This document shows, in pieces, positions 6,354 to 55,378 of a stretch of DNA of 64,000 bases; positions within the stretch are counted from its first letter, which is position 1, and the number at the start of each line of letters is the position of its first letter. The DNA is from a virus. Taxonomy: Duplodnaviria; Caudoviricetes. The translations under genes were made by a program, and so were the position numbers. Below the pieces are notes generated by a model. It was not told where the DNA came from. It ran no database searches and was given only the letters and a program-made list of their open reading frames with translations. The stretch lies in the IMG/VR virus record IMGVR_UViG_3300027969_000041; one strand, given 5' to 3'.

Positions 6354-6384
6354 ATTAAATAGCTCCTTATTCTTTATTTACCTA

Positions 6385-9300: not shown

Positions 9301-9387
9301 AAGTGGAATAGTGCCAGGAGCTGCGGGAGTATAAAAACTCTCGTCAATTACTGATACGCTTACGCCTGGTGAACCTAGTGTGGCCAT
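6385..9387 (-). CDS. gp18: Tail sheath protein (enlarged, 1000 aa)
   Basis: N-terminal SPGVSVSVIDES; C-terminal WFAPAGTRRG, KINPI, SALDRINVVRL, LFEPND, IAIEPVKAVEFIYI. Confidence 0.97.
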   Translation of the reverse strand: MATLGSPGVSVSVIDESFYTPAAPGTIPLIFVATAQDKSNASATGTAAGTTAANAGNVYVITSQRDLVDTFGTPLFYTSNNNPLHGGELNEYGLQAAYSALGVSSRAYVARADVDLKALAPTTSEPTGTPVAGTYWLDTDASYYGINEWDSSGDIPVFVTKTPLVINNDNRYGTGFFNGTTPLPAFGKKGDYCVVVTSDNLTNKYYYKKSDNTWTPLAQGFAGGKSVQVSPHTSYPTWTKGVELNGSVWIKTTSPGLGANLVVKYYNGSTNAWTTVAAPMYTSTRNAIEKLDYAGGGKNIPVGILAVDTNIENAVETANFKLWRRNATGATTIVSGSTIATQSLTSQFTIRETLASSGSWGPTKIISITGSNSNPVGAQIPAALAAQGLVNVTAAYDSQTKTVTFTHELGGEFELTDGANTPLTVIGLTAYNMTTKAGTANLYAAPTGDAFAFIATNWKPLVYESKTSTPTVLADDGILWHNSSISEVDIMIHNGSKWVGYANSDSPYFGYNTDPNGPIISASAPIAQSGGASLANGDIWISTADPERYGKDIYVFDGISTYKWILQDTTDQTSPSGWVFADARWAASGNATSAAKITDLLTSNYVDPDVPDPALYPRGMKLWNTRRSGNNVKKYIKGHLNLEANGGLNIRFSNDPMIDDLTGLPIYSADRWVTVSPNNVDGSGTFGRHAQRSYVVSKMKAMIDTNAAIRDTDTLAFNLIACPGYPEAIANMAAFNTDIGQTAFVVGDTPFRLAPTGTALTAWGNNTAVATDNGEDGAVTYDEYVGMFYPSGYTTDNSGNNIVVPPSHMMLRTIINSDAKSYQWFAPAGTRRGGVDNATSVGYITAEGEFKTAALYEGLRNVMHDVKINPIATLPGVGLVNFGQYTRAKNASALDRINVVRLVAYLRKQLSVLAKPYLFEPNDAQTRREIKAAAESLLLELVGQRALYDFLVVCDSSNNTAARIDRSELYMDIAIEPVKAVEFIYIPLRIKNTGEIAAGQ

Positions 9388-9486
9388 TTTTCAATCTCCT
9401 TAATGGATTACTTTGTTTTATTTAGCAGGTAACTCCAAAAAGTCCTGGTTAAATACCATTGTAAAAGGGAACAAAAAGGGCGGGGT

Positions 9487-9822
9487 ATGAGAGATTTATG
9501 TAGTTCGTGCGGGCAACGACCAGTTGCAATTAACTATTACAAAGATAGTAAGCCTTTCTACAGATCAAAATGTGATCATTGTGCTAAAGGTAGAGGTGTA
9601 GGAAAGCCTCTATGGGCAGTTACGGGATATAAGAAAAAAACCACATGTGATAAATGCGGTTTTAGTAGTAAGTATTCCGATCAGTTTAATGTGTTTCACA
9701 TAGACGGAGAACTAACAAACTGTCGTCATACTAATTTAAAAACAGTTTGTGCTAACTGTCAACGACTACTTCACAAACTTAAATTGCCGTGGAAGCAGGG
9801 AGATCTAACTCCGGATTTTTAG
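9487..9822 (+). CDS. Zinc-finger HNH-like protein
   Basis: Four CxxC pairs and HIDG...N...NLKTVCANC; late promoter TAAATA at 9450-9455. Confidence 0.6.
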   Translation: MRDLCSSCGQRPVAINYYKDSKPFYRSKCDHCAKGRGVGKPLWAVTGYKKKTTCDKCGFSSKYSDQFNVFHIDGELTNCRHTNLKTVCANCQRLLHKLKLPWKQGDLTPDF

Positions 9823-10478
9823 ACTAAGTCTAATGCAATCCTAGTAGCAAATGGGAGTTGTTTTTTTGACAGTAGCTCTTTAATCTGAGCAAATAAATCG
9901 TCAATAGTTGCGTTGTTGTCAACAACATGATCTATTGCGCCTCCTACCCATGCAGTTTCACTGGCATGAATACCTTCTTTTATTAAGAAGTTTTGTGCGC
10001 TTTCTACACCTTTATTTGCTTGAATAGCTATATCATACCAATGTGGAGTAACGCCTCGATTTACTCTAACTACAATACCGCCTGCATTATGAATAGCCTT
10101 AATTTCGTTAGGAAATCTTACATCACTGATTACAATATTATCTGTAGTCTTTCGAATCTTATTTTCTAGACTTGCAATCCAAATGTCATCATGGAAGCCT
10201 TTACGACATACTTCTGTGCCCCACCATTGTAGTATCCATCGTGGAGTAAGATGGGGAATATTTAGGCGTTCTGCCCACCACGGATCGACCTGTTCTCGCC
10301 ATGCACGAGCTTCTGCGGTGCGACCTTCTAGGAGTGTCCGGTCCCAACCAAATACATGAGATACTGCATCTTTGAGAGTATTTGCAAATGAATCTCGTCG
10401 ATATCCGTGAAAGTTAACCAAATAATCTGCGGCAGTGTCTTTGCCTGAACCAATAAATCCTACAAAACCTACAATCAT
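9819..10478 (-). CDS. Deoxynucleoside monophosphate kinase (T4 gp1-like)
   Basis: P-loop GFIGSGKDT, SFANTLKDAV, TPRWILQWWGTEVCR, VISDVRFPNE, HASE. Confidence 0.9.
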   Translation of the reverse strand: MIVGFVGFIGSGKDTAADYLVNFHGYRRDSFANTLKDAVSHVFGWDRTLLEGRTAEARAWREQVDPWWAERLNIPHLTPRWILQWWGTEVCRKGFHDDIWIASLENKIRKTTDNIVISDVRFPNEIKAIHNAGGIVVRVNRGVTPHWYDIAIQANKGVESAQNFLIKEGIHASETAWVGGAIDHVVDNNATIDDLFAQIKELLSKKQLPFATRIALDLV

Positions 10479-10501
10479 AGCATCTCCTAACGTGATACTA
10501 T

Positions 10502-10530
10502 AATTTACTATAATTAGCTATAGTTGTCAA
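10502..10530 (-). promoter_or_regulatory. Host sigma70-type promoter for the dNMP kinase
   Basis: TTGACA-17 nt-TAAATT, then SD AGGAG. Confidence 0.6.
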
Positions 10531-10537
10531 GAATTTT

Positions 10538-11296
10538 TTAGCCGATTACAAAGGTCAGTGGTTGTCCGCCTTCTTTGTAATTAATTAGATCCATCTCTAA
10601 CATTTCTATTTCAGCTTTGGCTTCAGCTTTTAGTGCTGTTCCATTTAAAGTTGTACTACCCTGCGGACTAGCAATACTTCCAAACTTTTCACGAGCCTCA
10701 CCTAGCATTAACTTAGCTGTCGCTAGACTATAATCTTTTAACCACTGACCTGCATATTGATCTTGCAGTAGGTTAAAATCCGGGCGATAGTTATACATCC
10801 AGGCCAGTACTTCTTCACCACCACGAGGACGTTGCATAATGGTTAACTTTTTAGTAGTCGGATTAAATGTAAAATTGATATCTGTACCAAACATTTTACC
10901 AACTTGCTTTTGATAACTGGCAAAAGCATAATATGTTGCTAGGCCGCCCATGTTTGTACTTGTTAACAAATAGGTATTAGAGTAAGCTAGATTAAACGGC
11001 TCAAATAAAGTTCCACTGTCGCCGCCACCAGATCTACTGCCAATACTACGACGGAAGAGTTGCCGTACTCCAGTTACTTCTTTAGGTAAAATGTAATCGT
11101 TTGTATCAGTTTCTAATGTAATAAATCCAAAACTTTCTTCGCTGGCGTTGCTACTTCGTTGACGAAATTTTGCAAGGGCGCGATCAATGGCCGTATTATA
11201 ATGAATAGGGTCTAATTCTACATCAACCATGCCAGCACCTAGCATAGCTTGTACATAGTCAACAACTTTTTGGCGTTCGTTTTCAGTTTCAGTCAT
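10538..11296 (-). CDS. gp13: Neck protein (gp13-like head-tail adaptor)
   Basis: VDVELDP.HY..AIDRAL..F, QWLKDYSLATAK.MLGEAREKF, GSTTLNG..L..EA motifs. Confidence 0.8.
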   Translation of the reverse strand: MTETENERQKVVDYVQAMLGAGMVDVELDPIHYNTAIDRALAKFRQRSSNASEESFGFITLETDTNDYILPKEVTGVRQLFRRSIGSRSGGGDSGTLFEPFNLAYSNTYLLTSTNMGGLATYYAFASYQKQVGKMFGTDINFTFNPTTKKLTIMQRPRGGEEVLAWMYNYRPDFNLLQDQYAGQWLKDYSLATAKLMLGEAREKFGSIASPQGSTTLNGTALKAEAKAEIEMLEMDLINYKEGGQPLTFVIG

Positions 11297-11301
11297 ACGA
11301 A

Positions 11302-11317
11302 TATTTATCTATAAATA
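11302..11317. promoter_or_regulatory. Back-to-back late promoters driving gp13-like (minus) and gp14/15-like (plus) genes
   Basis: TAAATA on minus at 11302-11307 and TATAAATA on plus at 11310-11317, inside a 28-nt intergenic gap. Confidence 0.75.
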
Positions 11318-11324
11318 TAAGACT

Positions 11325-12530
11325 ATGCCAAGACTCTCATTGTACCGCCCCGAAAAGGGCAATGATTATCGCTTTTTAGATCGTGTTATCAACGAAGAAT
11401 TTCAAGTGGGCGGAACAGATGTTTATGTACACCGATACACGGGTCCGGTTAATCCCGCAACAGGAGAAGCTACTCCTAGTACTCCTAATAATACTAGCAG
11501 TATTCCAGAATTAGGAATACAAGATTTAATATTCATGGAAAACAGAGATCGTCATTATGATCCTGATATCTATGTTATGCGTGGAATTTATACCATGCAG
11601 GACTTGGATTTTAATCTAAGCCAATTTGGCCTATTTTTACAAAACGATAATATCTTTATTATGTTCCACTTAAAAAATACAGTAGATGTATTACAGCGTA
11701 AAATTATGCCTGGAGATGTTATTGAGCTTCCTCACTTAAAAGATGAATATGCGTTAGATAACAGTGTCGTAGCATTAAAGAGATTCTATGTTGTACAAGA
11801 TGTTAGTCGTCCTGCGGCAGGTTATAGTCAAACATGGTATCCCCATTTGCTACGTGCCAAGTGCGTACCGTTAATTGATAGCCAAGAATTTAAAGAGATA
11901 CTTGATAGTGATGCAGGTGCAGGCAATGGTAGCACATTACGTGATTTATTAAGTACATATCAACAAAGCATTGACATTAACAATCAAATTCTAGCTCAAG
12001 CAGAAGCTGATGCACCTAGTAGTGGTTATAATACTAAAAACTTATTTGTTATTCCGTTGCGCGAAGATAGTACTGTAGATGTTGCCGATGCTTCAGATAT
12101 CGACGGCGATGCAAGTATTAACAACCCTGCATTAGATGCTAGTGTTGTGCTACGTAGTCCGGATAAAGACATTTATGTAGGTTACCTAAACGGTGACGGA
12201 AGTCCGCCAAACGGAGCACCTTATGGGTTTGGAATTTCATTCCCATCAGTGCCTATTAAAGGTCAGTTTTATCTAAGAACAGATTATATGCCTAACAGAT
12301 TATTTAGATACGACGGCAAACATTGGATCAAATATGAGGATAATGTTCGTATGACTCTAAACAACCTTGGCAGTGAAGACGTTGCCAGTGGACCTGCGGT
12401 AGGAAAATCAGTTCGCAAAACACAAAAATCTAGCTTTATTAATAATACAAATACTGCTACTATTGCAGGATCAGTGGTTAAGGAGCGTCAAGCATTGAGC
12501 AAGGCATTAAAACCTAAGGCGGACAATTAA
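11325..12530 (+). CDS. Neck protein (gp14-like)
   Basis: D.IFMENRDR.YD, FNLSQFGLFL.ND.IF..FH, PGDVIELPHL; positioned between gp13-like and gp15-like genes. Confidence 0.65.
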   Translation: MPRLSLYRPEKGNDYRFLDRVINEEFQVGGTDVYVHRYTGPVNPATGEATPSTPNNTSSIPELGIQDLIFMENRDRHYDPDIYVMRGIYTMQDLDFNLSQFGLFLQNDNIFIMFHLKNTVDVLQRKIMPGDVIELPHLKDEYALDNSVVALKRFYVVQDVSRPAAGYSQTWYPHLLRAKCVPLIDSQEFKEILDSDAGAGNGSTLRDLLSTYQQSIDINNQILAQAEADAPSSGYNTKNLFVIPLREDSTVDVADASDIDGDASINNPALDASVVLRSPDKDIYVGYLNGDGSPPNGAPYGFGISFPSVPIKGQFYLRTDYMPNRLFRYDGKHWIKYEDNVRMTLNNLGSEDVASGPAVGKSVRKTQKSSFINNTNTATIAGSVVKERQALSKALKPKADN

Positions 12531-12531
12531 T

Positions 12532-13908
12532 ATGGCAGATCATTTTTATGATGGTCAGGTACGCAGATATCTGACACAGTTTATGAGGATTATGAGTAAC
12601 TTTAGTTATAAAGATGCTAAGGGTAAACTTACACAAATTCCAGTCCGCTACGGTGATATGAATAGACAAGTGTCTAGTCTATTAAAGAAAAACAGTGAGA
12701 ACACTATCCCTAGTGCGCCATTTATTGCCTGCTATATCAAAGACATTCAGTTTGATCGTCCACGTATGCAAGATCCTACATTTGTTAGCACAGTTAATAT
12801 TCGTGAACGTACTTATGATGAAACTGGTCAAGAATATTTGAATACACAAGGTGCAAACTATACCGTAGAACGCATTATGCCTAGTCCATATCTTCTTACT
12901 TTTTCTGCAGATATTTGGACTACAAACACAGATCAAAAGTTTCAACTATGGGAACAACTTGCTGTATTATTCAACCCTAGTTTAGAAATACAAACAACAG
13001 ACAACTATATTGATTGGACAAGTTTAAGTGTCCTTACCTTAGAAAATCAAGTATGGAGTAGTCGCAGTATTCCACAAGGTCTTGAACAAGATATTGATAT
13101 TTTGAATATGACTTTTAGTGCACCTATATGGATTAGTCCACCTGCTAAAGTTAAGAAATTAGGAATTATTACTAAAATTATTAGTAACGTATTTTCTGTA
13201 CCTACGGGAAATATTCAAACAGATTACAATAATCCGTATGCAGTAGAGTTATTTGGGGAACCAGCTTCAACAGTTACAGTAACTCTTGGAAATTATGAAT
13301 TATTAGTAATGAATAACGTTGCTAAATTGATCAGCAATCAAGGCACAGATTACGATATTGCATCTGATACTGCACAACAAACAGCGTGGACTAGATTATT
13401 AGATTTATATCCAGGCCAGTTCCGTGCAGGTCTAAGCCAATTAAGATTGACTAAGCCTGACGGTAATGAAATTGTTGCCTATATCAGCTTAGATCCACTT
13501 GACGAGTTTAGGATGGTTATGAACATTGATCACGACACAGTTCCTAGCAATACAATTATCAGTGGCAGAGGCACCGTTGATGCTATTATTAATCCTGAAA
13601 CATTTAATCCTATCTCTACTAGAGCAGCAGGAAAACGCTATCTAATATTAGAAGCTATCAATAGTACTATTACAGAAGGTCCACTAGCGTGGCAACAGGC
13701 CAACGGTCAAGGATTTAGTGCTAATGCCAATGACATTATCGAGTGGAGCGGGACTGCTTGGTCAGTTATTTTCAATTCTCAGGCAGCTACTGCGGTGACG
13801 TATATAACTAACTCATACACAGGAGTTCAATACAAATGGGATTTAGAATCCTGGAGTAAGAGCTTTGAAGGTGTTTATACTAACCAAGCATGGCGTCTAA
13901 TTCTCTAA
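12532..13908 (+). CDS. Tail sheath stabiliser/terminator (gp15-like) with C-terminal extension
   Basis: HFYDGQVRRYLTQF, QIPVRYG, PSPYLLTF...IW, QLWEQL..LFNPSLEI. Confidence 0.7.
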   Translation: MADHFYDGQVRRYLTQFMRIMSNFSYKDAKGKLTQIPVRYGDMNRQVSSLLKKNSENTIPSAPFIACYIKDIQFDRPRMQDPTFVSTVNIRERTYDETGQEYLNTQGANYTVERIMPSPYLLTFSADIWTTNTDQKFQLWEQLAVLFNPSLEIQTTDNYIDWTSLSVLTLENQVWSSRSIPQGLEQDIDILNMTFSAPIWISPPAKVKKLGIITKIISNVFSVPTGNIQTDYNNPYAVELFGEPASTVTVTLGNYELLVMNNVAKLISNQGTDYDIASDTAQQTAWTRLLDLYPGQFRAGLSQLRLTKPDGNEIVAYISLDPLDEFRMVMNIDHDTVPSNTIISGRGTVDAIINPETFNPISTRAAGKRYLILEAINSTITEGPLAWQQANGQGFSANANDIIEWSGTAWSVIFNSQAATAVTYITNSYTGVQYKWDLESWSKSFEGVYTNQAWRLIL

Positions 13909-15684: not shown

Positions 15685-18438
15685 TTATTTATTGACCAGA
15701 TTGTCAATGGTCTCGGAAAGTTGAGCAATTTGTTTTTGCTGTTCTTTTATGGCTTCTACTAACAATGGTACTAATTTCTCGTATTGAATAGTCTTGTAAT
15801 CCTCTCCAGATTTACTGTTTCCATTTTCATCTTGATCAAACGGTGCTGGTCTAACTGCTTCTGGTAGAACTGCATCTACTTCATCGGCAAATAGTCCAAC
15901 GATTGTTTTATCGGATGTGTATCCAAAACTTCTTGCTAAATCGTTCGGTGTATATAAAATACCATTTAATGATAACACCTTTTGTACAGCATTGTCAATG
16001 ATTTTGACATTTTCTTTTAATCTTCTGTCCGAATAATATGCTGTAATTTCATTAGTAGCACGAATCTCACCAGTTGTACCGCTTGGCGCTGTACCAACTC
16101 CTAATGATCCGTTAATTCTTTCGTTACCGTTAACATAACTGTTACCAGTATTGTAGATACCCCAGCTATTTGTAAATGTTACATTTGTACTTGCAACAGG
16201 AGCCTGAACATATAAGTTAATAGCATCAGTGACTGTAATTGCGTTAGTAGACGCAAAGCTAGGACTGTGAAAACTTGCACCAACTTTTCCTGATACTGTG
16301 CCTGCAATAGCAGTAGTATCAGTTAATGCTGCGGCAGCACTATGGAACACCGGACTGGTTGTTGTCCATGCAGTAGAACTAATATTACCTGTTCTAGTAA
16401 ATGCTGTGGCATTAATAGTTCCCACAACTCCTAATGTACTGATAGAATTAGTCCATGTAAAGTTGCCCGAGAATGTTGTTGCACCTGCGGCACTTTGATA
16501 AGGAATTTGATTAACTAGGCCGCCAGCAATATTTGTAGCGGTAGTTGAACTGCCAGCACTTAGTCCAGATGCCAATGACCACTGAGGAGCACTTGCACCC
16601 GCAGTTAACACGTATCCGCTTGTACCTAATGCTAGTTTAGTTAGTGCTGTACCTGAAGCATAATAAGCAATGTCACCAGCAGTCCAAGATGATAATCCTG
16701 TACCACCGTTGTTAGTTGCAACTACACCTGTAACATTTGCAGAACTACCTGAAATATTATTTGTACTTAATGCCGTTGCAATTTGCGCACCAGTTGCCGC
16801 AGTAAATGCACTTGTACCATTACCGTAGGCAACACCAGTTAGTGTATTAACACCTGTACCACCGTTGGCTGCACCTAATGTTTGTGTCCACTGAGGTGCC
16901 GTTGCACCTGTATTTACTGTTAAGAAATATCCTGCTGTACCAATTGCTAAGAAAGTAGTTGTGGCAGCGCCTGATTGATAAGGTAAGCTGCCTGCACTAC
17001 CGCCCGCTATGTTGCCGGCAGTACCAGATGCATTTCCTGTTAGTGCTCCAACAAATGTAGTAGCTGTTACTGATCCAGTAATTGTTGCACCTGCACTACC
17101 TGTGATTAGGCCACCTACATATAATTTGTCACCTATGCCAACGCCGCCATTGACAACTAATGCTCCAGTTGATGTAGAACTTGCAGCAATACCTGCAATA
17201 ATTTTTACTGTACCGGTTGAATCAACTGTAACACGATCAATAGCATTAGTAGTTAATTTTAAAGAGTTTGTAGCAGGAAATATTGAGAATGATTCAGACC
17301 CTGCGTTATTAGTTAATGCTGCTTGATTAGCATCGGAGTACAAAACACCAATTTGGCCTGTACTAGCACCTCGGAATTTTAATATAGAATTTGCACTACT
17401 GATAATATGCAACGGTGCAGTTGGAGTATCGACACCAATACCGTGATATCCAGAGCTAGGAATAAATGTTAGTCCACTAGTAGCTGCTGTTTTGATTCCT
17501 GTGTTACCTGTACTTGTTGATACAAATGTAACATACATTGGAGTAATTGTAGCAATATCATTTGTAATAGTGACATTAGTTGCTGTACCTGCACTTAGTC
17601 CACTAATTGCAGTCCATTGAGGTGCTGTTGCGCCTGCGGTTAATACAAATCCGCTTGTACCCAAAGCCAACATTGTTGTTGTATCTGCGGCTGTTTGATA
17701 TGGCAAACTGCCAGCTACTCCGCCTACTACATTTGTTGCTTTGGAAGCTGTTCCTGTTAAACTAGCAGTAATTGTGCCTGCTGAGAAATTGCCGCCGGCA
17801 TCTCTAAATACCAAAGTACTAACTGTATTTGAGCTTGTACCGTTTGATGTAACAGTAAATGTCTGTGTCTCACCAGTTGTTGATCCACTTAGACCATAAC
17901 CTGATGTAGCACCAGTTGAAACATAATCACCAGTTGTATCTGTTCCTAATACTACACTGTTAGGTTGAATGGTTAAATTAACGCTGGTTACATCAGCACT
18001 ACCATCAATACTAAATGTACCAGTTGTATCACCGGTAAATGTCACTGTTCTAGCAGTAGACCATTTTGTTGCTACTGTTGCTGTTCCTACAGATAAGGTA
18101 GACTGTGCTACATAACTAGGAGCAGAAGAGCCGTTACTGCTTAAAATAGATCCTACAGTTGATGTAGTTACAAAACCAGTTGTACCTGGAGCACTTTGAT
18201 AAACTAATTGCCCTGCTAGGCCATTGGCTATATTAGTAGCAGTGGTAACACTTCCACTTCCGGAGACTGTTCCGTATATTATTCCGCCAACATATAAATT
18301 TCCACCAACACCTGCACCACCTATTACCTGTAACGCACCGGTAATAGTCGACGATGCCGCATTGGTTCCGCTGACAAAAAGTTGGGTATCAACGGTTCCG
18401 GTACCGTATATTCTTGTTCCAGTTAATAGTTTTGCCAT
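15685..18438 (-). CDS. Tail fibre with C-terminal intramolecular chaperone (peptidase S74-like)
   Basis: S/T/G-rich repeats; YSDRRLKENV...KVLSLNGILY...GLFADEVDAVLPEAV...YEKLVPLLVEAIKEQQ coiled-coil end. Confidence 0.85.
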   Translation of the reverse strand: MAKLLTGTRIYGTGTVDTQLFVSGTNAASSTITGALQVIGGAGVGGNLYVGGIIYGTVSGSGSVTTATNIANGLAGQLVYQSAPGTTGFVTTSTVGSILSSNGSSAPSYVAQSTLSVGTATVATKWSTARTVTFTGDTTGTFSIDGSADVTSVNLTIQPNSVVLGTDTTGDYVSTGATSGYGLSGSTTGETQTFTVTSNGTSSNTVSTLVFRDAGGNFSAGTITASLTGTASKATNVVGGVAGSLPYQTAADTTTMLALGTSGFVLTAGATAPQWTAISGLSAGTATNVTITNDIATITPMYVTFVSTSTGNTGIKTAATSGLTFIPSSGYHGIGVDTPTAPLHIISSANSILKFRGASTGQIGVLYSDANQAALTNNAGSESFSIFPATNSLKLTTNAIDRVTVDSTGTVKIIAGIAASSTSTGALVVNGGVGIGDKLYVGGLITGSAGATITGSVTATTFVGALTGNASGTAGNIAGGSAGSLPYQSGAATTTFLAIGTAGYFLTVNTGATAPQWTQTLGAANGGTGVNTLTGVAYGNGTSAFTAATGAQIATALSTNNISGSSANVTGVVATNNGGTGLSSWTAGDIAYYASGTALTKLALGTSGYVLTAGASAPQWSLASGLSAGSSTTATNIAGGLVNQIPYQSAAGATTFSGNFTWTNSISTLGVVGTINATAFTRTGNISSTAWTTTSPVFHSAAAALTDTTAIAGTVSGKVGASFHSPSFASTNAITVTDAINLYVQAPVASTNVTFTNSWGIYNTGNSYVNGNERINGSLGVGTAPSGTTGEIRATNEITAYYSDRRLKENVKIIDNAVQKVLSLNGILYTPNDLARSFGYTSDKTIVGLFADEVDAVLPEAVRPAPFDQDENGNSKSGEDYKTIQYEKLVPLLVEAIKEQQKQIAQLSETIDNLVNK

Positions 18439-24997: not shown

Positions 24998-26896
24998 TTA
25001 TATACCTGTAAGTTGTAGCCAAATTCTATTGGTACCATCTTTTATCCACTGTAGCACTACGCCATTTACAGTATCAACCCAGGTATCACCTATTCTAGGA
25101 TTTGCAGGAGGTGTATCACTTACGGTCACACGAGGTGAATATAGTAAATTTCCTTCATCTGGATTTCCACTTGCACTATAAATATTTCCTGGAACATTTA
25201 ATAAGTTTGTACCGGATGAATAATAAGAACTTGTAGATGTCGCAGATGTGACATAGTTTAATTTTGCGTTACTGTATTCTGGAGAATAAGAACCTATTAT
25301 GTCTGTTAATCCTAGATAATATACATGACTTGCAGTGGTCTGATTGACAAAAATAGCGTTACTAGCAGTAGATGCTCCACCACCTAAAGCCAATCCGCCA
25401 ATATCTCCCCAATATGGAACATCTCCGTTTGATAATAAAACAGTATTTGTGCTGCCTATTGGTAAAAGTAAAGTAGTACTAGTTCCTGTTTGGTACGGAA
25501 CACTACCCCTTGCACCACCTCTAATATTTGTTGCAGTATTAATTGCGCCATTGATGTTTCCTAATACTGTTAAGTCTTGCCCAACGAATACATCTTTTCC
25601 AAATGCTGCTCCGCCGGCAACTACTACTGCGCCTGTTGTAGTACTTGTAGAAGTTACTGTTGACTCAACACATATATTATCTTCTACATGAACTCCACCT
25701 ATAACCCATAATGCCGCAGTGCTGGTTCCGCACGGTGTTCCTAATCCAACTTCAACATCAGCCATTAATTCTAAATTACCTAGACCGTTGTAATAAAATA
25801 CGCTGCCAATATTAACTTGATTGTCTACGCCATCTACAATGTTATCACCACCTATAGCAATAATTCCACTGGCATTTGTAATATTTTGACCAACTTCGTG
25901 ACCAATAAAGAAATTGTAAGAACCAGTTGTTAAATTTGCAGCAACACCGTCACCGAATAAAAAGTTTTGTTTGCCGTCGATGAGTTTTGAACCTGCATTA
26001 GTACCAATAGCAATGTTATTGTCTCTTTCTAATAATCTAGAAACAGTACCGCTAGAAATATAAGTTGAAAAACCGGTCCCGTCAACTGGAATACTAACGT
26101 TAATATTTGAATATAATTCTATTTGAAATGTAGATATAGGTTTTGCATAGCATCTAAGTTGATTAATCTCAGTCATGCCTGTTACACCAGTTATGATAAT
26201 ATGTGTACCAGTTGTGACACCGTGATCTACTGCTTCTATAATAATAGGATTAGTCTTTGAAATTGCTGCAATTAGTGCAATAGGAACATACTGAATAGAT
26301 CCAGTTGCCTTAAGAGCACTGTCACCTATTGCAATAGTGTTTCTAATTTCAGTACCAGAATTTAATGCAAAACGCCCTAGTGCAATACTCTTATAAGAAG
26401 TTGATAAACCTAATAAAGAATCATTACCGATTGCAATGCTTGCTTGTCCTTCACTGTAGGTATTAACTTGAGGAACTGCTGTACCACGAACAACAATATT
26501 GTTAACGCCTTCGTAACCTTGTCCAATAGTTAAACCATTAACAACAATGTCATCATAAATGTTCATTGCGCCGCCAACACCTACACCCCCTTTAACTACA
26601 AGAGCGCCAGTCGTTGTGCTTGTGGATGCAGTACTACTAGTAACATAAACAAAACCAGTTCCAGTTCCTGCAAGTCTAATCATGCCGTCTGGAAGATTAC
26701 TATAAACAGTTCCAGAATTTATTTCTAAATTACCTAAACTAGAACGATACGATGTTCTTAACAGCGCATCAGTAACAACAGTATAACCTGTGCTAGTTGT
26801 AGGTGATTCTGGCAGCTGTGGTTGTGCAGTTGCTAGAGTAATAAACTCATTGCTACCTCCAGCACGTAATGTTGATCCACTTAATAGTTTAGACAT
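24998..26896 (-). CDS. Fibre-like protein with YadA-head-like IAIG repeats
   Basis: SIAIGNDSL, SIALGRFAL, TIAIGDSAL and NIAIGTNAG repeats; C-terminal PPANPRIGDTWVD. Confidence 0.7.
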   Translation of the reverse strand: MSKLLSGSTLRAGGSNEFITLATAQPQLPESPTTSTGYTVVTDALLRTSYRSSLGNLEINSGTVYSNLPDGMIRLAGTGTGFVYVTSSTASTSTTTGALVVKGGVGVGGAMNIYDDIVVNGLTIGQGYEGVNNIVVRGTAVPQVNTYSEGQASIAIGNDSLLGLSTSYKSIALGRFALNSGTEIRNTIAIGDSALKATGSIQYVPIALIAAISKTNPIIIEAVDHGVTTGTHIIITGVTGMTEINQLRCYAKPISTFQIELYSNINVSIPVDGTGFSTYISSGTVSRLLERDNNIAIGTNAGSKLIDGKQNFLFGDGVAANLTTGSYNFFIGHEVGQNITNASGIIAIGGDNIVDGVDNQVNIGSVFYYNGLGNLELMADVEVGLGTPCGTSTAALWVIGGVHVEDNICVESTVTSTSTTTGAVVVAGGAAFGKDVFVGQDLTVLGNINGAINTATNIRGGARGSVPYQTGTSTTLLLPIGSTNTVLLSNGDVPYWGDIGGLALGGGASTASNAIFVNQTTASHVYYLGLTDIIGSYSPEYSNAKLNYVTSATSTSSYYSSGTNLLNVPGNIYSASGNPDEGNLLYSPRVTVSDTPPANPRIGDTWVDTVNGVVLQWIKDGTNRIWLQLTGI

Positions 26897-27301: not shown

Positions 27302-30300
27302 TTATAGGTTTCCGCCTTCGATGGCTAAGATGAACGGTGTCATGTTAGCAAATAACGATTTAGTAAATGTTCTACCACTTAGAACACCTGTTGCTTGACT
27401 GATAACTAGGCCCGGACCAATACGGAAATCACCGTTCTGATCAGTGCTTGTAAAGAATACTTTACCACTGCCTAATTGAACAGTCTCTTTTCCTTGTACG
27501 GGATCAGCAATACCAAACTGTGGTAATGCTCCGTAATTGGTACCTGCTCCAACATACTCAAATACATAACCCGACGCACTAATATAACTGCGTTGATAAA
27601 AATTAATTTCTGAACCATCTGGAAACAAATCATTACGTCTTACATTTTCACCCAATGAAACAATGTGATGTGTACCACTACGAGACCAATAACTTAACCC
27701 AGTCATAACAGAATTGTATCTTCCACCTGTTTCAATATCATATATTAAACGTTGTAGAATAATCTTAACATCTCGTTTACATTTATTTTCATCATATACA
27801 AATCCAGGATTTGTAGATTTAACATAACAATTTATTTCATCGATGATAAAATCAGTGTTATGTTCAAGTAAAGCAATTGCAGAACCACCTCCCTGAACAT
27901 CAGGCCCTGTTCTAGTTCTTATCTTCTCAGGAATAATTGCTTCAGCTTGGGTAACAGTTGCAGTACTTACAATACTGATAATTTCACCAAATCTTAAATT
28001 AATAAATGTTTGTGCGGCAGCACCACCGGTTACTAAATTATCAATAAGTTGATGTGTAGTCACTCCTGTACTTGTTGTCACAACAGTGTTAGAAATAATC
28101 TGATTAACAACAGTGTTCATTCTTGTCAATGCGGTTACGTGTTGCGCTACTTGATCAGTTCCGCCTGTAGCGGCAGCAGACAATAAATTAACACCGTTTG
28201 TTTTTGGATTTTCTGCAACTTCACTGCTTAAAACTGTATAATAAGCATTTCCACAGAAATATAAGTTAAAGAAATTATCATTTCCTACTTCGCCACCACC
28301 GCTGGTTAATGCATAATTTAATGTAACGCTTCTATACCCTAAATCACTAACAATTGTACCTGTGGCGGCATATAGCAATCCGTTAGTACCAGTTTGACTT
28401 CCGTATTGATCTCTAACATACAATGCATTACCAATTGCAATACCATCGGTATTAATATTAGAAATTGTAATAGAGCCGGTGGTTAAACTTGATAAACTTG
28501 GTACAGCATTTAAGAATCCAGGGAATGCTTGTTCATTAAGGTGGCCTGTCGGAGGCAATACCTCCATGACTAAAGAAATATGCGGTCTGTCATTTAGATC
28601 AGGAATGAATGCTTCTACTCTTGCATTGTTTGGCCAGTAACCATTTGGATAGTATTGGTCTAAATCTGTGCCTTTAGGGTATGCTTTGTATGCGGGGTTA
28701 TATATAGTTCCGGTAAATTTACGGGTTCCGTAACCTTTAGCTACTAAGCATAGATCACCGAAGTTAGCGTTACTATTAACAATAGAAGCGATACCACCAT
28801 TGTCAACTTGAACACCTACACTTGAGAAAATTGTAAACACCGAAACTAACTGTGCATATCCATCATTGGTAATTCTAACACCGCGTCCGCCTTGTGTCAA
28901 TTGTGTAAACGCATCATAAACAAAAGAGTTAATAGGACTGCGTGTACTAATAACAGCACCGTCAACTAAACTTCCACCCATACCACCTATTGGATCAACT
29001 CTTCGTTGCGCCCATTGGTCTGGAACATCTTTATCTTGTTTAGGGAACACTAATGTGTCACCAAAATACAATGTTGAATTTGTTCCAAATCCTATAGTTG
29101 CGGTATTCAGCCCGATCAAATAAGTGCCAGTTGATATGTTAGTTACAGATGTAACTTTTGGAGATAGCTTAACGTCAAGACCATTAATTCCAGTTAACGC
29201 ATATAATCCGCCACCTTGATATACCGGTGGAGCATATTCTTTACCGCGTGTAATAATATCAGAAATAATATGGAAGTTACGAGCAACAGCTTGTTGTGGC
29301 ATATAATCTCCACCATACTGGAAGAATGTATTAATTACCTGCGTTGACTGTGTTCCTGTTTGTGGAGTAATTGGAGTGTTTGCAATAATCTGTAAGGCAA
29401 TATCTTTAATATAAGTAATTGCCATTGTAGTAGTTGTCTCTTGTCCTGCTACATAGTTATATCCTTGATTCCAATACGCAACGCCTGCTTCAACAGATTT
29501 ACTATTTCCACCTAATAAAATATCCTGGCTTACTGCATCAATTAACAGGCCGGTATCTCGATAACATAGTTCCTCGTCGTATTTGAAAGAATTAGGATTA
29601 TACTTATTATCAATGTATGCAACTACTTCAGCTTGTAAGAATGATTTATTTGCTATTAAATTATTAAAAGCTGTTAATACAGTTGTGCTTGATGAAGCAG
29701 TTAGCCCAATTGGACTATACAAATATCCAACTGGGCCATTAGATATAATATTAGTAACTGTGGATATTGCTTTAGAAATTAAAGTCGATTCACTTGCTGT
29801 TGCAGTAGTGGCTCCAAATACTTGGTCAATCTTAGTTTGCAACGGAGTAACCGCAATGTTTTGTATTACATTTCCTGCTATTGTTGCTAGATATTGAAAT
29901 GCATCTGTAGTTTCAGCCTCTTCATTTTCAATTGTAATCTGTGTAGTGTTTGCAGCATAGTATGCAAGGCCAGATTGTACAGCTTGTCTGTTTCCTCCAT
30001 GCAATAAATCAAACGATACAGAGTCAATCATATAACCAATATCACGTTTACATTTAACAGGATCATAATGTCCAACAAATGTAGGATACGTTTGATCAAT
30101 GTAGGCTACTACTTCATTTTTCATATACGTTTTATTAGCCTGTAATAGATCTACAGCATTTTCTACACTGAATAAATTTGATTTATTTCCGTTAGTAATA
30201 ATCTTATCGGACCATCCTAGACTATTGCCACCTAATATATCAAGAATAATATTAAATTCATTGGCAATGATTAAGGCTTCATCTGCGGTTGCTGCTTCTA

Positions 30301-32560
30301 GGCTTGTATTTTGTAGCGGAGCTCCGGACTGATATCTATCAACTAAATCTTCAGTCGGCGTAATATTTTGAATAATTTTTATTGCTAGGTCTCTTAGATA
30401 TGTAACCGCAGCAGTAGTAGTTGTAAGTTCGTTAGCAATATCTCCCACATACCCATCTTGATTCCAATATTGAATACCTGCAAATGTACTTTGACTAAAA
30501 GTTGATGTAGAGTATACTATATCAAATGCAATAGAGTCAATGATTAAACCTACATCTCTTTTACATTTTATTTTATTGTAAGGAAGAGCTTTGGGTGGAA
30601 AACATAAACTATTATTAATATAGTTTAATGTATTTTCTTGCATAAATGCTCTGTTTGCCTGCATTAAAATTTCTGCACTAACAAATGCTGCATCTGGTCC
30701 TGTACTATTATAGATTGCTGGCGCCACATCTGGGCCGTTGTTAATAATGTTGGTAACAATTCCAAAACAATTTGTTATAGAAGCGGATGCAATACTACCG
30801 CCAAGTAAGACTGTGTTTCTTACTTGTGGATTTAAACTTGCTACAGTAAATGTACAAGTGGTATTTGTAATAACTTCTAAGCATCGATCTCTTAGATAAT
30901 TAATAGCCGCAACAGTCTGAGTTTCTTGGCCAGCAATAGCACTAATAACACCGTTGTAATATGCTAGACCGCTCTGAACAGATTTTTCGTTACCACCAAA
31001 TGCAACATCATAAGCACAGTTCTCAATAAGAATAGCAACGTCACGCTTACATTTTTCTTGATTGTAATCAAAAGTAGGAAACTGAGCATTAATTCTAGAA
31101 ATAACTTGTTCTTGTAAGAATGATTTATTTGCCAGCATTAATGTTCTTGCATTAAAAAATCCAGGATTTTGTTGTCCTACATCAACACTCATTCCTTGTA
31201 CAATTGTTCCTGAGCTAACTGAAAGAATAATGCTAGTTGTATTTGCAATCCATGTGCCTGTACCAACTGCATCGGGAATCTGAACAGTTTGATTAGGTGT
31301 AAACAATGTACCGTCACGAAGCCACGGACCGGAAAGATTAGTACAGTTCTGAATGTATGGTGAGTGGAACAAGTCAATTCTATCATCACCCTCTTGTGGA
31401 GGAAACGCTGTACAGAAAGCACCGCGATTAAATCTATCTTGGTAAGGACCTTCTAGTAACCCACTTCGACCATTTAAGAACTGCATGAATGCTAGATAGC
31501 AACCAGATTCAACATGGAACAAGTCTTGAGTTTTATTAATAGGTTCAACGCCTGTTGTACGAATGTCTGATCCCATAACACTAGTATATGGCTTTAATCT
31601 AATCGGGTTATCTTCTAAATAATGTCCTGGACTAACTTGAATTTGTGTACCGGGTTGATAATAAGGACTGTTAACAGCACCTGTAATTGTACGACATGCA
31701 CGACTTGCATCTAATGCACGACCATCGTTAGTGTCGTCTCCGTCCATGGTAACATATAGAACATTAGTAACTACCGGAGCAGTACCAATTGGTTTTGTAC
31801 CTCGTACACGGATATCGCCGATAACATCAGTTAGGCCGCCTTCCGGTGCTAGTGTTAAGTTACTGGCTGTTGTTGAAATAAATGGAGAATAAATCTTTTC
31901 TAAATATGCTTCAGCCCATTGTGTTGATGTATTGCCAATCTTAGAATGACTGTTTAATGTAGGAAGAATGTTTTCTGTTACATTTAAATTTTTACCTAAA
32001 TAAACATCCCCTAAAATTCCAACTCCACCTGTGGCAGTAAATGCACCAGTGGTAGGGGATGTTGACGATGCTGTAGATGATACAAATATTTTGTCAGTTT
32101 TTAATTTTCCGGTAGCAGGATTGTATGTTAGACCAAACCCAACACCCGCGCCTGCTTCACTAGAATTGTCACCGCGCAGTTCCTGTGCTCTAATAGTACC
32201 AATTTCGTCAACAAACGTAAGGAAAAAAGATGAGTCAATATTAGTAGCTGTTACAATTACTTTGGTAGATGTAAAAGCCGCATCAATAATTCCGTGAATA
32301 ATACCGCCTACCCACAAGTCTTTTCCAATGCCAACACCGCCGTCGACAACTAAGGCGCCAGTTTGTGTGTTAAATGCTTGATTTTGTCCTGTGAATCTGG
32401 TATTTGGTGTCTGAATAGTTAAAATACCGTTAGGACTACTACTAATAATACTAGTGTTAGTAGAACTAATAATGACACTACCGTCAGGCGCGGAAATAGT
32501 ATACGATGCACCAGGTGTCGGATTTGTTGATATTGTGCCTGATACTCTTATTGTAGCCAT
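27302..32560 (-). CDS. Giant spike-like protein: parallel beta-helix scaffold with five phycobiliprotein-like (C-x-R-D) domains; likely start 32560 rather than 32614
   Basis: MATIRV start follows GGA SD and TAAATA; LYVTMDGDDTNDG...QVSPGHYLE beta-helix cap; five (K/L)CxRD repeats. Confidence 0.8.
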   Translation of the reverse strand: MATIRVSGTISTNPTPGASYTISAPDGSVIISSTNTSIISSSPNGILTIQTPNTRFTGQNQAFNTQTGALVVDGGVGIGKDLWVGGIIHGIIDAAFTSTKVIVTATNIDSSFFLTFVDEIGTIRAQELRGDNSSEAGAGVGFGLTYNPATGKLKTDKIFVSSTASSTSPTTGAFTATGGVGILGDVYLGKNLNVTENILPTLNSHSKIGNTSTQWAEAYLEKIYSPFISTTASNLTLAPEGGLTDVIGDIRVRGTKPIGTAPVVTNVLYVTMDGDDTNDGRALDASRACRTITGAVNSPYYQPGTQIQVSPGHYLEDNPIRLKPYTSVMGSDIRTTGVEPINKTQDLFHVESGCYLAFMQFLNGRSGLLEGPYQDRFNRGAFCTAFPPQEGDDRIDLFHSPYIQNCTNLSGPWLRDGTLFTPNQTVQIPDAVGTGTWIANTTSIILSVSSGTIVQGMSVDVGQQNPGFFNARTLMLANKSFLQEQVISRINAQFPTFDYNQEKCKRDVAILIENCAYDVAFGGNEKSVQSGLAYYNGVISAIAGQETQTVAAINYLRDRCLEVITNTTCTFTVASLNPQVRNTVLLGGSIASASITNCFGIVTNIINNGPDVAPAIYNSTGPDAAFVSAEILMQANRAFMQENTLNYINNSLCFPPKALPYNKIKCKRDVGLIIDSIAFDIVYSTSTFSQSTFAGIQYWNQDGYVGDIANELTTTTAAVTYLRDLAIKIIQNITPTEDLVDRYQSGAPLQNTSLEAATADEALIIANEFNIILDILGGNSLGWSDKIITNGNKSNLFSVENAVDLLQANKTYMKNEVVAYIDQTYPTFVGHYDPVKCKRDIGYMIDSVSFDLLHGGNRQAVQSGLAYYAANTTQITIENEEAETTDAFQYLATIAGNVIQNIAVTPLQTKIDQVFGATTATASESTLISKAISTVTNIISNGPVGYLYSPIGLTASSSTTVLTAFNNLIANKSFLQAEVVAYIDNKYNPNSFKYDEELCYRDTGLLIDAVSQDILLGGNSKSVEAGVAYWNQGYNYVAGQETTTTMAITYIKDIALQIIANTPITPQTGTQSTQVINTFFQYGGDYMPQQAVARNFHIISDIITRGKEYAPPVYQGGGLYALTGINGLDVKLSPKVTSVTNISTGTYLIGLNTATIGFGTNSTLYFGDTLVFPKQDKDVPDQWAQRRVDPIGGMGGSLVDGAVISTRSPINSFVYDAFTQLTQGGRGVRITNDGYAQLVSVFTIFSSVGVQVDNGGIASIVNSNANFGDLCLVAKGYGTRKFTGTIYNPAYKAYPKGTDLDQYYPNGYWPNNARVEAFIPDLNDRPHISLVMEVLPPTGHLNEQAFPGFLNAVPSLSSLTTGSITISNINTDGIAIGNALYVRDQYGSQTGTNGLLYAATGTIVSDLGYRSVTLNYALTSGGGEVGNDNFFNLYFCGNAYYTVLSSEVAENPKTNGVNLLSAAATGGTDQVAQHVTALTRMNTVVNQIISNTVVTTSTGVTTHQLIDNLVTGGAAAQTFINLRFGEIISIVSTATVTQAEAIIPEKIRTRTGPDVQGGGSAIALLEHNTDFIIDEINCYVKSTNPGFVYDENKCKRDVKIILQRLIYDIETGGRYNSVMTGLSYWSRSGTHHIVSLGENVRRNDLFPDGSEINFYQRSYISASGYVFEYVGAGTNYGALPQFGIADPVQGKETVQLGSGKVFFTSTDQNGDFRIGPGLVISQATGVLSGRTFTKSLFANMTPFILAIEGGNL

Positions 32561-32588
32561 TTTATATTCCTTTAGAGTATTTATTAGT

Positions 32589-33074
32589 TTAATGAATTCG
32601 TAATTCCACAGCATCTATAAATGCTGGATCTTTGTGCGGCCAATGTAGATGTGCCTGTAATCTAATTACAACTCCAAAATTATTATCTAATGTTTCTATT
32701 GATAAATTTTCCATTGCCCATACATCTGTTTTGTTGCCGTACAATTTAGTAGGTGCTAGATCTAATGTTGCACGATTTTCACTTACTTGGTCATTAATAA
32801 CTAAACTGATTGTTTCATCAGTAACTCGTCCTCGTCTTTTAACCGACAACCTTAATTCAACTCCTGAAATAGTTTCAGGTAAGTTTTGAAAATTAAAGCC
32901 AGTTGCTTTTAAGTAATAAGTCTTTGTTCGTAAATCATGTTTAGGACTTCTTGCGATATGTTCTAAACATCCATTGGTCGATTTTAAAGAATTATCCCAC
33001 TGTACATGCACTGATTCAGCACCTTCTTCGGCATATTGAGTCAATGTGGTTGGATTAGTCCATGGAGTGGTCAT
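32589..33074 (-). CDS. Hypothetical beta-rich late protein
   Basis: 161-aa ORF; TAAATA at 33080-33085 lies 5 nt before the ATG. Confidence 0.6.
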   Translation of the reverse strand: MTTPWTNPTTLTQYAEEGAESVHVQWDNSLKSTNGCLEHIARSPKHDLRTKTYYLKATGFNFQNLPETISGVELRLSVKRRGRVTDETISLVINDQVSENRATLDLAPTKLYGNKTDVWAMENLSIETLDNNFGVVIRLQAHLHWPHKDPAFIDAVELRIH

Positions 33075-34054: not shown

Positions 34055-35239
34055 TTACTTGAAGCTTACTTTTGCGCTAGTGATAGCAACTTTACCTAAG
34101 TAGTCAGCTGCATTACCTAGAGAAGAAGCAGTGTTGCTTAACTCTACATAACCGTAACGTGTTAGGAAGCCAACTACTGGCTCAAATGTTGCTGGGTCTA
34201 AAACAACACCAGAAGACATTAGAGGAATGTAAGGGCAATAGAAAGCAGCGGCATCAGCTTCGCTAGAACCTTTGTAACCGATCAATACTTGGTTAGCATC
34301 TTGAGCAGTTGCATCAGTCATGTAAGCGTCAACATAGATACGCATTGCGCCGTTTAGTGTACCAACAAACTTAGTGTTTGTAGGTGCTTCGAATGTACCT
34401 TCTGTAGTACGAGCAAAAGCAGATGTTGTTGCAGACTGAAGGATCGTTAGAGCCTGGTTAGAAACAACAGCCCAGTTACCTGAACCACGACGTGTACGTT
34501 GAGCGATCAAGTTGCTTACGCGATTGATCTGGATGGCTAGAGCGGCATGCTCGTCACCAACGAATGTAGCTGTACCAGAAACTAATGACTGGTCATATGT
34601 TTCTTCAACAGAAGCCAAGCTACGTAAAGAAGCTAGGATCTCTTGATCGATTTCAGCTGTGATTTCTTGTGCTAGAGCAGCCATGATTTCTGCTTCGATG
34701 TCAATGCCTTGTTGGGCTTGTGCATCTTGAGCAGCTTCAAAAGTCCAACGTGCGCTTAGTTTACGAGACTTAGCTTCGACTGGGCTCTTCAAGATTTGAA
34801 TGCTCATACGCTTGCCTGGACGACCTTCAAGGGCAGCAGTTGAAGTTGCTCTTGGAGATGTTGTGCTATCACCGTTACCAGAATAACCAGCAGCGATTTT
34901 GAATGGGCTTAGTGCCTCTTCACCAGCTTGTACTTGGTCGTCAGCGTCAGCATAACGAACACGTAAAGTGTGGATCTGTGCAACTGGGCCTGTCATTGGC
35001 TGAACACCAATGATTTCGTTAGCAATAACTGTAGGCATAACACGACGGATAACTGGTAGAATAACACGGTTAAGTGTAGCTACGTTACCTGCAGATGTTG
35101 CACCAGCTGTTGCGCTCTCAGCCAAGTGGCGACGAGTGTTTTCTAGGCAAACTGCCATAGAAGACTTACGGTTACCGGATAGGCCTTCAAGCAGAGCTTC
35201 TTTGGTCTCTGACCATCTTTCATTTAATAATTGTGACAT
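34055..35239 (-). CDS. gp23: Major capsid protein
   Basis: LPVIRRVMP..IANEIIGVQPMTGPVAQI, VEAKSRKL.ARWTFE.AQD, EITAEIDQE, FYCPYIPL, F.P.VGF.TRYG. Confidence 0.98.
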   Translation of the reverse strand: MSQLLNERWSETKEALLEGLSGNRKSSMAVCLENTRRHLAESATAGATSAGNVATLNRVILPVIRRVMPTVIANEIIGVQPMTGPVAQIHTLRVRYADADDQVQAGEEALSPFKIAAGYSGNGDSTTSPRATSTAALEGRPGKRMSIQILKSPVEAKSRKLSARWTFEAAQDAQAQQGIDIEAEIMAALAQEITAEIDQEILASLRSLASVEETYDQSLVSGTATFVGDEHAALAIQINRVSNLIAQRTRRGSGNWAVVSNQALTILQSATTSAFARTTEGTFEAPTNTKFVGTLNGAMRIYVDAYMTDATAQDANQVLIGYKGSSEADAAAFYCPYIPLMSSGVVLDPATFEPVVGFLTRYGYVELSNTASSLGNAADYLGKVAITSAKVSFK

Positions 35240-47428: not shown

Positions 47429-48252
47429 TATTTTGTTATTTCAATTAGTTTTGAATTTATCTGTCCAAAGATTTTCATAAAATCCTCGGAAATTTCGTTT
47501 TCATTTACTAGTACATACTTGTTTTCATCTCTATTAAACATATCCTTACCTAGTTTTATTCTATTTTTAATATGTTCAGGATCTAAGAATTCTGAGGTGT
47601 TAAGTTCTTGGTGAGCAAAGCTATCAATTTTATATTGAATATCTTCAATAGCACCCCAATAGGTTAAATGCCAACCGCCATTATCTATGATACCAAATCC
47701 GTGTCTAGCATTTCTTAGTCCTTGCGGAGTCTCTTCTCTTGCAACCTTATTAGTACTAATGCTAGTACCTATCCAAGGTGCAACTTGTTTCTGTTTAAAG
47801 TTATAAGAAAAATGATCTTGTTGCACAACTAACCTATCCCATCCGTTTGAAAAATAGTGTTTAGCAATGTCAATACATGACACATGAGGAATCTCATCTA
47901 GATCACTGATCATAATAATAGCATCGTTGTCGAATAATTCCAATGCTTTTGAAATATAATTTCTTTGTGCGTGTTCGCACTTATGCGGCCCTGTGTTATA
48001 ATCTCGATCGTGAGCAGGTTTGCGCTCGTAATTGTAATTTCTTCGATCTGTTATAAACGGAAAATGCAATACTTTGTCTAGATATTTTTTATACCTGGAC
48101 ATATTATTCATAAAGTATAACGGTTTTGTATTACCGCTAAAGGTTAGATTTGATTCTACAATCACAAAGTAATCTACATGATCGTAGAGATATTCTAATC
48201 TACCTTCAAGTATATCAAACTCGTTAAAAAATATAAAGCTGTCTACAATCAT
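47428..48252 (-). CDS. GT17-like glycosyltransferase
   Basis: FFNE.DILE.RL..L...VDYFVIVES..TFSG..K, QRN, SDLDEIP, GGWHL. Confidence 0.85.
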   Translation of the reverse strand: MIVDSFIFFNEFDILEGRLEYLYDHVDYFVIVESNLTFSGNTKPLYFMNNMSRYKKYLDKVLHFPFITDRRNYNYERKPAHDRDYNTGPHKCEHAQRNYISKALELFDNDAIIMISDLDEIPHVSCIDIAKHYFSNGWDRLVVQQDHFSYNFKQKQVAPWIGTSISTNKVAREETPQGLRNARHGFGIIDNGGWHLTYWGAIEDIQYKIDSFAHQELNTSEFLDPEHIKNRIKLGKDMFNRDENKYVLVNENEISEDFMKIFGQINSKLIEITK

Positions 48253-55358: not shown

Positions 55359-55378
55359 AATTTACAATAAATATTAAT

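Follow-up and report, generated by a model that had tools for sequence, protein, structure and literature searches.

The window analysed here is a stretch of 64,000 nucleotides from a virus of the Caudoviricetes (IMG/VR virus record IMGVR_UViG_3300027969_000041). On its minus strand, the open reading frame (ORF) 27302-32614(-) has a stop-free translation of 1770 amino acids (aa), in which the motif C-x-R-D occurs at residues 522, 684, 855, 1017 and 1612. We focused on the repeated units that carry this motif, which are very probably phycobiliprotein (PBP)-like domains within a putative phage fibre protein. An earlier, sequence-only reading of the window had placed the five Cys codons at 31049-51, 30563-65, 30050-52, 29564-66 and 27779-81, in exact agreement with these residues by codon arithmetic. 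All five peptide strings of 20-21 aa that it quoted are present in the translation, and the spacing of 161-171 aa that it gave for the first four copies corresponds to Cys-Cys distances of 162, 171 and 162 aa. The true start of the ORF is probably Met19, near nucleotide 32560, because close homologues are 8-18 aa shorter and the homologues checked place every Cys 17-18 residues earlier.

A hidden Markov model (HMM) of the unit, built from homologues, was used to delimit the units in the 1770-aa protein. It matched the four tandem copies with 154-178 bits and a separate fifth copy, nearer the C-terminus, with 108 bits (Table 1). Sequence identity to copy 1 is 31-36% for the tandem copies and 25% for the fifth.

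Table 1. Features of the repeat gene and the neighbouring capsid gene, with positions in the window.
Feature	Position	Strand	Basis or remark
Whole ORF, putative fibre-type structural protein with PBP-like units	27302..32614	-	1770 aa; PHROGs matches; annotated cyanomyovirus homologues
N-terminal region, aa 1-480	31175..32614	-	From about aa 265-282 onward kept in cyanophage homologues (tblastn)
PBP-like unit 1, aa 481-636, Cys522 (KCKRD)	30707..31174	-	Unit HMM 161 bits; Pfam Phycobilisome at aa 518-585
PBP-like unit 2, aa 639-809, Cys684 (KCKRD)	30188..30700	-	Unit HMM 154 bits; aligned with the other copies
PBP-like unit 3, aa 815-971, Cys855 (KCKRD)	29702..30172	-	Unit HMM 169 bits; 11/21 CpcA motif positions
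PBP-like unit 4, aa 972-1131, Cys1017 (LCYRD)	29222..29701	-	Unit HMM 178 bits; unit chosen for AlphaFold2
Predicted beta-rich core between the array and the last unit, aa 1232-1466	28217..28921	-	AlphaFold2 of aa 1135-1770
Half unit, aa 1487-1563	27926..28156	-	Late helices only (HMM positions 87-161); helical, pLDDT ~90 in the model
Fifth unit, aa 1575-1728, Cys1612 (KCKRD)	27431..27892	-	Unit HMM 108 bits; helical only in its early part, to ~aa 1640, then beta
Major capsid protein gene	34055..35239	-	phrog_138, E 4e-100

Relationship of the units to phycobiliproteins

The Pfam family Phycobilisome (PF00502, cut-off 22.2 bits) matched the whole protein with 26.5 bits (E 7e-6), aligning aa 518-585 with profile positions 72-139, and a precomputed match to the same family exists for about half of the 120 best homologues. 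For searches in the reverse direction, we used a profile of 96 diverse units (A2). Among all sequences in the PDB it retrieved three chains only, at borderline E-values of 0.065-0.4; all three are phycocyanin alpha, and the Cys of the unit falls on their Cys84. With Acaryochloris CpcA and CpcB (plasmid pREB3) as hhalign references, the profile aligned to CpcA with 88.5% probability and an E-value of 2.7e-6 over unit columns 10-67 and CpcA residues 38-105. This alignment pairs the unit Cys (Cys1017 in unit 4) with Cys84, its Arg with Arg86, its Asp with Asp87 and a G-G pair with Gly102-Gly103. The phycocyanin alpha string that the sequence-only reading had given is essentially correct when compared with PDB chain 1f99_A. 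The 11 of 21 motif positions that it counted for copy 3 were again 11 of 21 against Acaryochloris CpcA.

The structure predicted by AlphaFold2 for unit 4, with the A2 alignment as input, is all helical, with a predicted local distance difference test score (pLDDT) of 93 and a predicted template-modelling score (pTM) of 0.89. The top 50 Foldseek matches of this model in the PDB were all PBPs, with template-modelling (TM) scores of 0.55-0.70. A second aligner that is independent of Foldseek, VIA, was run against 48,161 representative chains and placed PBPs or ApcE bilin-binding domains at ranks 1 to 8, with Z-scores from 14.7 to 11.6 over 115-145 aligned residues. These were followed by globin-coupled heme sensors at Z ~11. 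The predicted fold is thus that of a globin-like PBP with helices A, B, E, F, G and H, as the sequence-only reading had expected. That reading had also noted the absence of the N-terminal X-Y helices, and indeed the unit aligns to PBPs only from about residue 26-38 onward.

Since four approaches agree (the Pfam match, the reverse search, the hhalign alignment and fold prediction followed by two aligners), we are confident that the units are phycobiliprotein-like domains with an attachment motif. A helical repeat could also have come to resemble PBPs over a short motif only, by convergence or by chance. Single units alone scored 18 and 15 bits against PF00502, below the Pfam cut-off, the significant sequence alignment spans just ~58 columns, and shape searches of AlphaFold DB clusters and the ESM Atlas gave weak matches and no closer cellular family. 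The resemblance nevertheless exceeds what chance would produce, given the E-value of the Pfam match, a reverse search that returned only phycocyanin alpha and the E-value of the hhalign alignment. As the four independent lines concur, the best structural match covers 145 of 167 residues at Z 14.7 and the common motif lies on the equivalent helix, we regard a spurious resemblance as very unlikely. A phmmer search of the PDB with the whole protein gave nothing meaningful, and the only NCBIfam match was to CpeA, below threshold.

The remainder of the protein appears to be built differently. In an AlphaFold2 model of aa 1135-1770 (636 aa), strands occupy model residues 98-332, mostly at pLDDT 55-92, and this beta-rich body is followed by a confident helical domain at aa ~1480-1640. 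Within this domain, the half unit, which comprises late helices, precedes the early helices that bear Cys1612. The fifth unit has helices at model residues 442-506, with the Cys in helix 475-495, and strands thereafter. In this model, the last helical domain thus appears to be a circular permutation of the PBP-like fold with beta structure on both flanks. Foldseek found no clear fold match for the 636-aa model, and we therefore claim neither a beta-helix nor any named spike fold for the C-terminal body; the model did draw weak, low-probability matches to UBA1/UBA6. At the other end of the protein, aa 1-480 have no Pfam match. The pieces that tblastn aligned in many cyanophages begin at aa 265-282, and the tail fibre family phrog_17885 matches aa 276-633.

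Conservation of the C-x-R-D site

To measure conservation, ~1300 units were collected by HMM. As this collection is independent of the motif, the count is not circular. The Cys is conserved in 97% of the units, the Arg in 98% and the Asp in 99%. Of the 165 unit positions, only Asp59 (100%) and Tyr75 (99%) join them in the top five for conservation, so that Cys, Arg and Asp are preferentially conserved. Two of the outcomes that the sequence-only reading had named as refuting its idea, a fold that is not globin-like and a lack of such conservation, were thus checked and not observed. They align column for column with the chromophore-site triad Cys84/Arg86/Asp87 on helix E of PBPs. Gln122 is conserved in 90-92% of jumbo-phage units, and no conserved His is found in the ~1300 units.

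The units that have lost the Cys are informative. Arg/Asp were lost in 13 of 36 units without the Cys versus 7 of 1262 units that keep it, an odds ratio of ~100. After units more than 70% identical were collapsed, the loss was seen in 12 of 27 and 6 of 570 units, respectively. The odds ratio for this coupled loss is 75-100, with p-values of 1e-14 to 1e-17 that are uncorrected for relatedness. Units in which the Cys is replaced by Ser retain Arg-Asp, and those with Phe, Trp or Leu mostly do not. Where Trp is tolerated, the side chain probably points into a cavity. The coupled loss and the replacement pattern fit a single site beside a Trp-sized space, as expected of a ligand pocket. The role of Asp59 is probably a different, structural one, since it is invariant throughout, even in units without Cys, Arg and Asp.

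The features by which PBPs pair have not been kept. X-Y helices and Asp13-Arg93 pairing build the alpha-beta monomers and rings of PBPs. The units do not have X-Y helices, and 80% of them have Asp where PBPs have Arg93.

Phage clade, gene neighbourhood and bilin enzymes

The capsid protein encoded in the window is 66-70% identical to those of the jumbo T4-related phages GAP32, CBB, PA5oct, Vibrio 2.275.O and Phosso (Sinorhizobium). These are phages of Proteobacteria, and judged by the capsid sequence, the window belongs to an uncultured aquatic jumbo T4-related clade. The sequence-only reading had implied a cyanophage setting. This did not hold, as the capsid protein places the phage in the GAP32/CBB/PA5oct-type group and, together with the absence of psbA (0 of 12 related large contigs), rules out a classical cyanomyovirus. 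Among isolate phages, the repeat protein itself matches cyanomyoviruses only (tblastn). No near-identical DNA was found in isolate phages, and one query with a single unit retrieved no relatives.

Relatives were selected from IMG/VR by their capsid (75-92% identical), which gave 12 contigs of at least 52 kb. Since 10 of these 12 contigs contain the units, the repeat gene is core to the clade; the remaining two have the capsid gene at the contig end. In clade relatives for which both positions are listed, the repeat and capsid genes are separated by a few kb. The number of separate units per protein ranges from 4-5 up to about 24. Single reading frames with 20-23 units occur in G041 (C1:29912-45388), G044 (C1:10676-21802) and G033 (C1:315544-325527), which encode 5616, 4262 and 3849 aa, respectively. 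Among 1.84 billion cluster representatives, the unit profile matched 1513 proteins (50% identity clusters) at E <=0.001, and the largest of these metagenomic matches reach 6382 aa and about 40 matched stretches.

In the window, the repeat gene is part of a late structural run that comprises, in order, a head protease, a 364-aa protein, the capsid gene, two small genes and ORF 27302-32614(-). It is followed by genes for a protein of 126 aa, a tailspike-like protein of 632 aa, two further structural proteins and a fibre protein of 917 aa. The PHROGs tail fibre and virion structural families match the repeat protein at E-values of ~1e-66 to 1e-15 (best 4.5e-66), and its cyanomyovirus homologues are annotated as tail fibre or structural protein. 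The location of the gene in a late structural block and the annotation of its homologues as virion components suggest that its product is a fibre-type virion protein. The 917-aa fibre (15685-18438 (-)) ends in an endosialidase-type intramolecular chaperone domain (Peptidase_S74), an end typical of self-cleaving trimeric fibres. The 632-aa neighbour (24998-26896 (-)) matches a tailspike PHROG, and a ubiquitin-E1 FCCH beta-barrel falls just under the Pfam cut-off there. The structural region also contains genes for a TnsA-like endonuclease (3705-4145 (-)), a SegE-type GIY-YIG homing endonuclease (44723-45151 (-)) and a family-17 glycosyltransferase (47428-48252 (-)).

No heme oxygenase or bilin reductase was found among the 30 window ORFs scanned with Pfam, in line with the earlier remark that the window has no such gene. 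The sequence-only reading had also proposed searching homologue-bearing genomes for these enzymes, and heme oxygenase and bilin reductase were indeed found in relatives. In G001, which is 322 kb long, has terminal repeats and is 100% complete, a heme oxygenase adjoins a ferredoxin-dependent bilin reductase; among isolates, this reductase is closest to a PcyX-like gene in Pelagibacter phage Mosig (40% identity). A PcyX-like bilin reductase is also present in G033 (92% complete) and in G034, and G027 has oxygenase and reductase side by side. Both relatives that are at least 90% complete (G001 and G033) thus encode a PcyX-like bilin reductase. In these two, the reductase lies ~155-160 kb from the repeat gene and is not adjacent to it. 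By a rough estimate, a 60-70% fragment would hold both genes less than half the time, and the reductase could be present clade-wide. In this neighbourhood of G001 (C1:26000-40000, at 6227-7415 and 7421-12549 therein), the oxygenase/reductase pair stands beside ClpS and Hsp20 and, further on, ClpX, and on its other side lies a 629-aa collagen-repeat protein. In Mosig, a SAR11 myophage (MT647606, 39650-43977), genes for ferrochelatase, heme oxygenase and a PcyX-like reductase directly adjoin the neck genes, and between them lie an endonuclease V gene and four genes for 2OG-Fe(II) oxygenases.

Possible function and comparison with known systems

The unit profile also found matches in cyanophages whose adsorption has been studied. 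S-PM2, P-HM1 and P-HM2 need light for adsorption, a dependence that in S-PM2 was shown to be independent of host photosynthesis, whereas P-SSM2 and the podovirus P-SSP7 adsorb in darkness too (PMC6628666). There were nine matches in S-PM2, in two giant reading frames, and four each in P-HM2 and P-HM1, versus none in P-SSM2 and P-SSP7. P-SSM2 was still negative with a P-HM2 unit as query at E-values up to 1. The units are located at 55558-57960 and 166342-170379 in S-PM2 (NC_006820) and at 54715-57528 and 82988-83935 in P-HM2 (NC_015284). The Cys is present in every diverged unit checked in S-PM2 and P-HM1/2, and most of these units read K-C-x-R-D. We treat the match between units and adsorption as a lead and not as evidence of mechanism.

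These observations can be combined in the following model. A beta-rich fibre body would bear an inserted array of four domains and a rearranged fifth, descended from phycobiliproteins. Each domain would represent the globin-like PBP core without the X-Y helices and the Arg93 salt-bridge residue, and the domains may thus form separate beads on the fibre. Each would bind a linear tetrapyrrole at its Cys, with Cys84 forming the thioether and Arg86 and Asp87 holding the bilin. The bilin could be supplied by the host, or made by the heme oxygenase and PcyX-like reductase often encoded in the clade. Since no CpeT or CpeS lyase turned up in five related contigs, attachment may be autocatalytic, like that of ApcE. 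Such pigments would most likely serve for light-dependent control of the fibre, and hence of adsorption. Attachment of a bilin to the units is plausible, although we put it slightly short of an even chance. The further step, that the units form a bilin-based photoreceptor on the virion through which light alters the fibre so that adsorption occurs only in light, we consider unlikely as matters stand. If true, it would account for the hitherto unexplained light-dependent adsorption of S-PM2 and P-HM1/P-HM2, and the heme oxygenase/PcyX cassette of phages would gain a phage-encoded acceptor.

Several observations weigh against bilin binding and light sensing. The match with adsorption is perfect but small (about two plus two independent phages), and a few cyanophage units read C-x-D-D. 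A bilin reductase was found in just 4 of 22 large contigs selected by unit or capsid, although the others are mostly 16-73% complete, and a CpeT or CpeS lyase in none of five related contigs, one of them complete. Units occur in 5 of 20 contigs selected by their reductase. Because the domain belongs to the core of the clade (10 of 12 capsid-selected contigs), common descent and not function may explain why it occurs together with the reductase, and we downgraded this co-occurrence as functional evidence. The link to phage bilin enzymes that the sequence-only reading had suggested did receive real support. The reductase is present in both of the most complete relatives, adjacent to an oxygenase in G001, but the association is not strict. 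Mosig has the oxygenase and reductase pair without any unit, and its bilin must therefore serve another acceptor or purpose, and P-SSM2 carries bilin reductase genes according to the literature, yet no unit was found there. Within the unit, the near-invariant Asp59, Tyr75 and Gln122 either do not occupy aligned PBP positions or cannot be aligned, and they could reflect a different chemistry or merely a structural network. The loop between helices B and E, which covers the bilin in PBPs, is 8-11 residues shorter in the alignments than in phycocyanin alpha.

Many of these points also fit the main alternative, a pigment-free scaffold, which we judge possible but somewhat less probable than bilin attachment. 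Here the PBP-derived domain would be a rigid, easily duplicated helical spacer that sets the length or reach of the fibre, and C-x-R-D, Asp59, Tyr75 and Gln122 would stabilise the fold through an internal network of polar contacts, with no ligand involved. A copy number that varies from 4-5 to about 24 is what a length-setting module would show, and the invariance of Asp59 where Cys, Arg and Asp are lost indicates that part of the conserved set is structural. The shortened B-E loop, the lack of a lyase and the many clade contigs that show no bilin reductase are likewise expected. However, it would be unusual for a purely structural residue to persist, as this single Cys does, in 95-97% of units with just ~30% identity to one another. 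That Cys and Arg/Asp tend to disappear together points to one functional site, and these residues occupy the aligned positions of the PBP chromophore site. The conserved Cys might instead serve another chemistry, such as binding of heme, another tetrapyrrole or a metal, an internal Cys-Gln thioester that reacts with a host surface molecule, or inter-chain disulfides, all of which we consider improbable. In thioester-domain adhesins, a Cys-Gln thioester reacts covalently with surface molecules, and the conservation of Gln122 beside the Cys in jumbo-phage units would suit such a bond. Nevertheless, the units of S-PM2 and the P-HM phages have the Cys but lack Gln122, and this makes a thioester unlikely. 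Heme sensors are the next-best structural matches, but the sequence matches are to phycocyanin alpha and not to heme globins, and heme binding was set aside as there is no conserved His to ligate it.

Apart from the bacterial paralogues discussed below, phycobiliproteins have been described chiefly as antenna pigments in cyanobacteria and algae. The units described here are clear PBP relatives with an intact pigment-binding site that form tandem arrays in viral structural proteins. We found no published description of PBP-like units in phages, although an earlier mention is possible as most subscription journals lay outside our search. Some of these proteins already carry PF00502 in the output of public annotation pipelines. 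What the oxygenase and PcyX/PcyA cassette does in phages that infect non-cyanobacteria has been called 'still enigmatic', and bilin-binding globins have only been speculated on in this context (PMC11480375). If the units bind bilin, they would offer a testable purpose for heme oxygenase and PcyX/PcyA in phages whose hosts have no phycobilisomes, and a testable light sensor for light-dependent cyanophage adsorption. They might then also be a source of small, monomeric, possibly self-attaching PBP-type domains for use as fluorescent tags. To our knowledge, a bilin-binding array would be the first photoreceptor-like pigment protein on a virion. If pigment-free, the array would neatly illustrate how a host antenna protein can become part of the building material of a virus.

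The closest counterpart among characterised proteins is phycocyanin alpha (CpcA, PF00502). It shares with the phage unit the globin-like helical core (Z up to 14.7, TM 0.55-0.70) and, on the equivalent helix, the K-C-x-R-D-x-G ... G-G motif with Cys84, Arg86 and Asp87. Unlike CpcA, the phage unit has no X-Y helices, has Asp at the Arg93 position, and combines a shorter B-E loop with a long, unstructured G-H loop and the extra invariant residues Asp59, Tyr75 and Gln122. Whereas CpcA is a free antenna subunit of ~160-170 aa, the phage domains occur as 4 to about 24 tandem copies in a structural protein. The bilin biosynthesis-associated globins (BBAGs), compared here by their description only, resemble the units in being PBP-related globins outside antennae; they occur in organisms with bilin reductases, an enzyme seen in 4 of the 22 large clade contigs. 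They differ in having been described from bacteria. BBAGs are PBP paralogues of heterotrophic bacteria, and a term search of their description found phages mentioned for bilin reductases only (Rockwell et al. 2023, PMC10151467). BBAG-type globins have been suggested as possible partners for the products of phage PcyA/PcyX (PMC11480375).

The giant proteins of T4-like cyanomyoviruses, such as S-PM2p091 (T4-like gene cluster 830) and the P-HM2 frames of 4458 and 3682 aa, contain the same unit in diverged form, mostly with K-C-x-R-D, and share a C-terminal region with the repeat protein. Their units are fewer and more diverged and are set in a different overall protein. The PBP domain of ApcE provides a further parallel, as it is likewise embedded in a larger multi-domain protein and is matched structurally at Z 13.0-13.6. 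ApcE attaches its bilin without a lyase; it has one such domain, with the Cys placed elsewhere, and belongs to the phycobilisome core. The phage units, in contrast, have their Cys at the canonical position 84 and are carried by what is probably a phage fibre.

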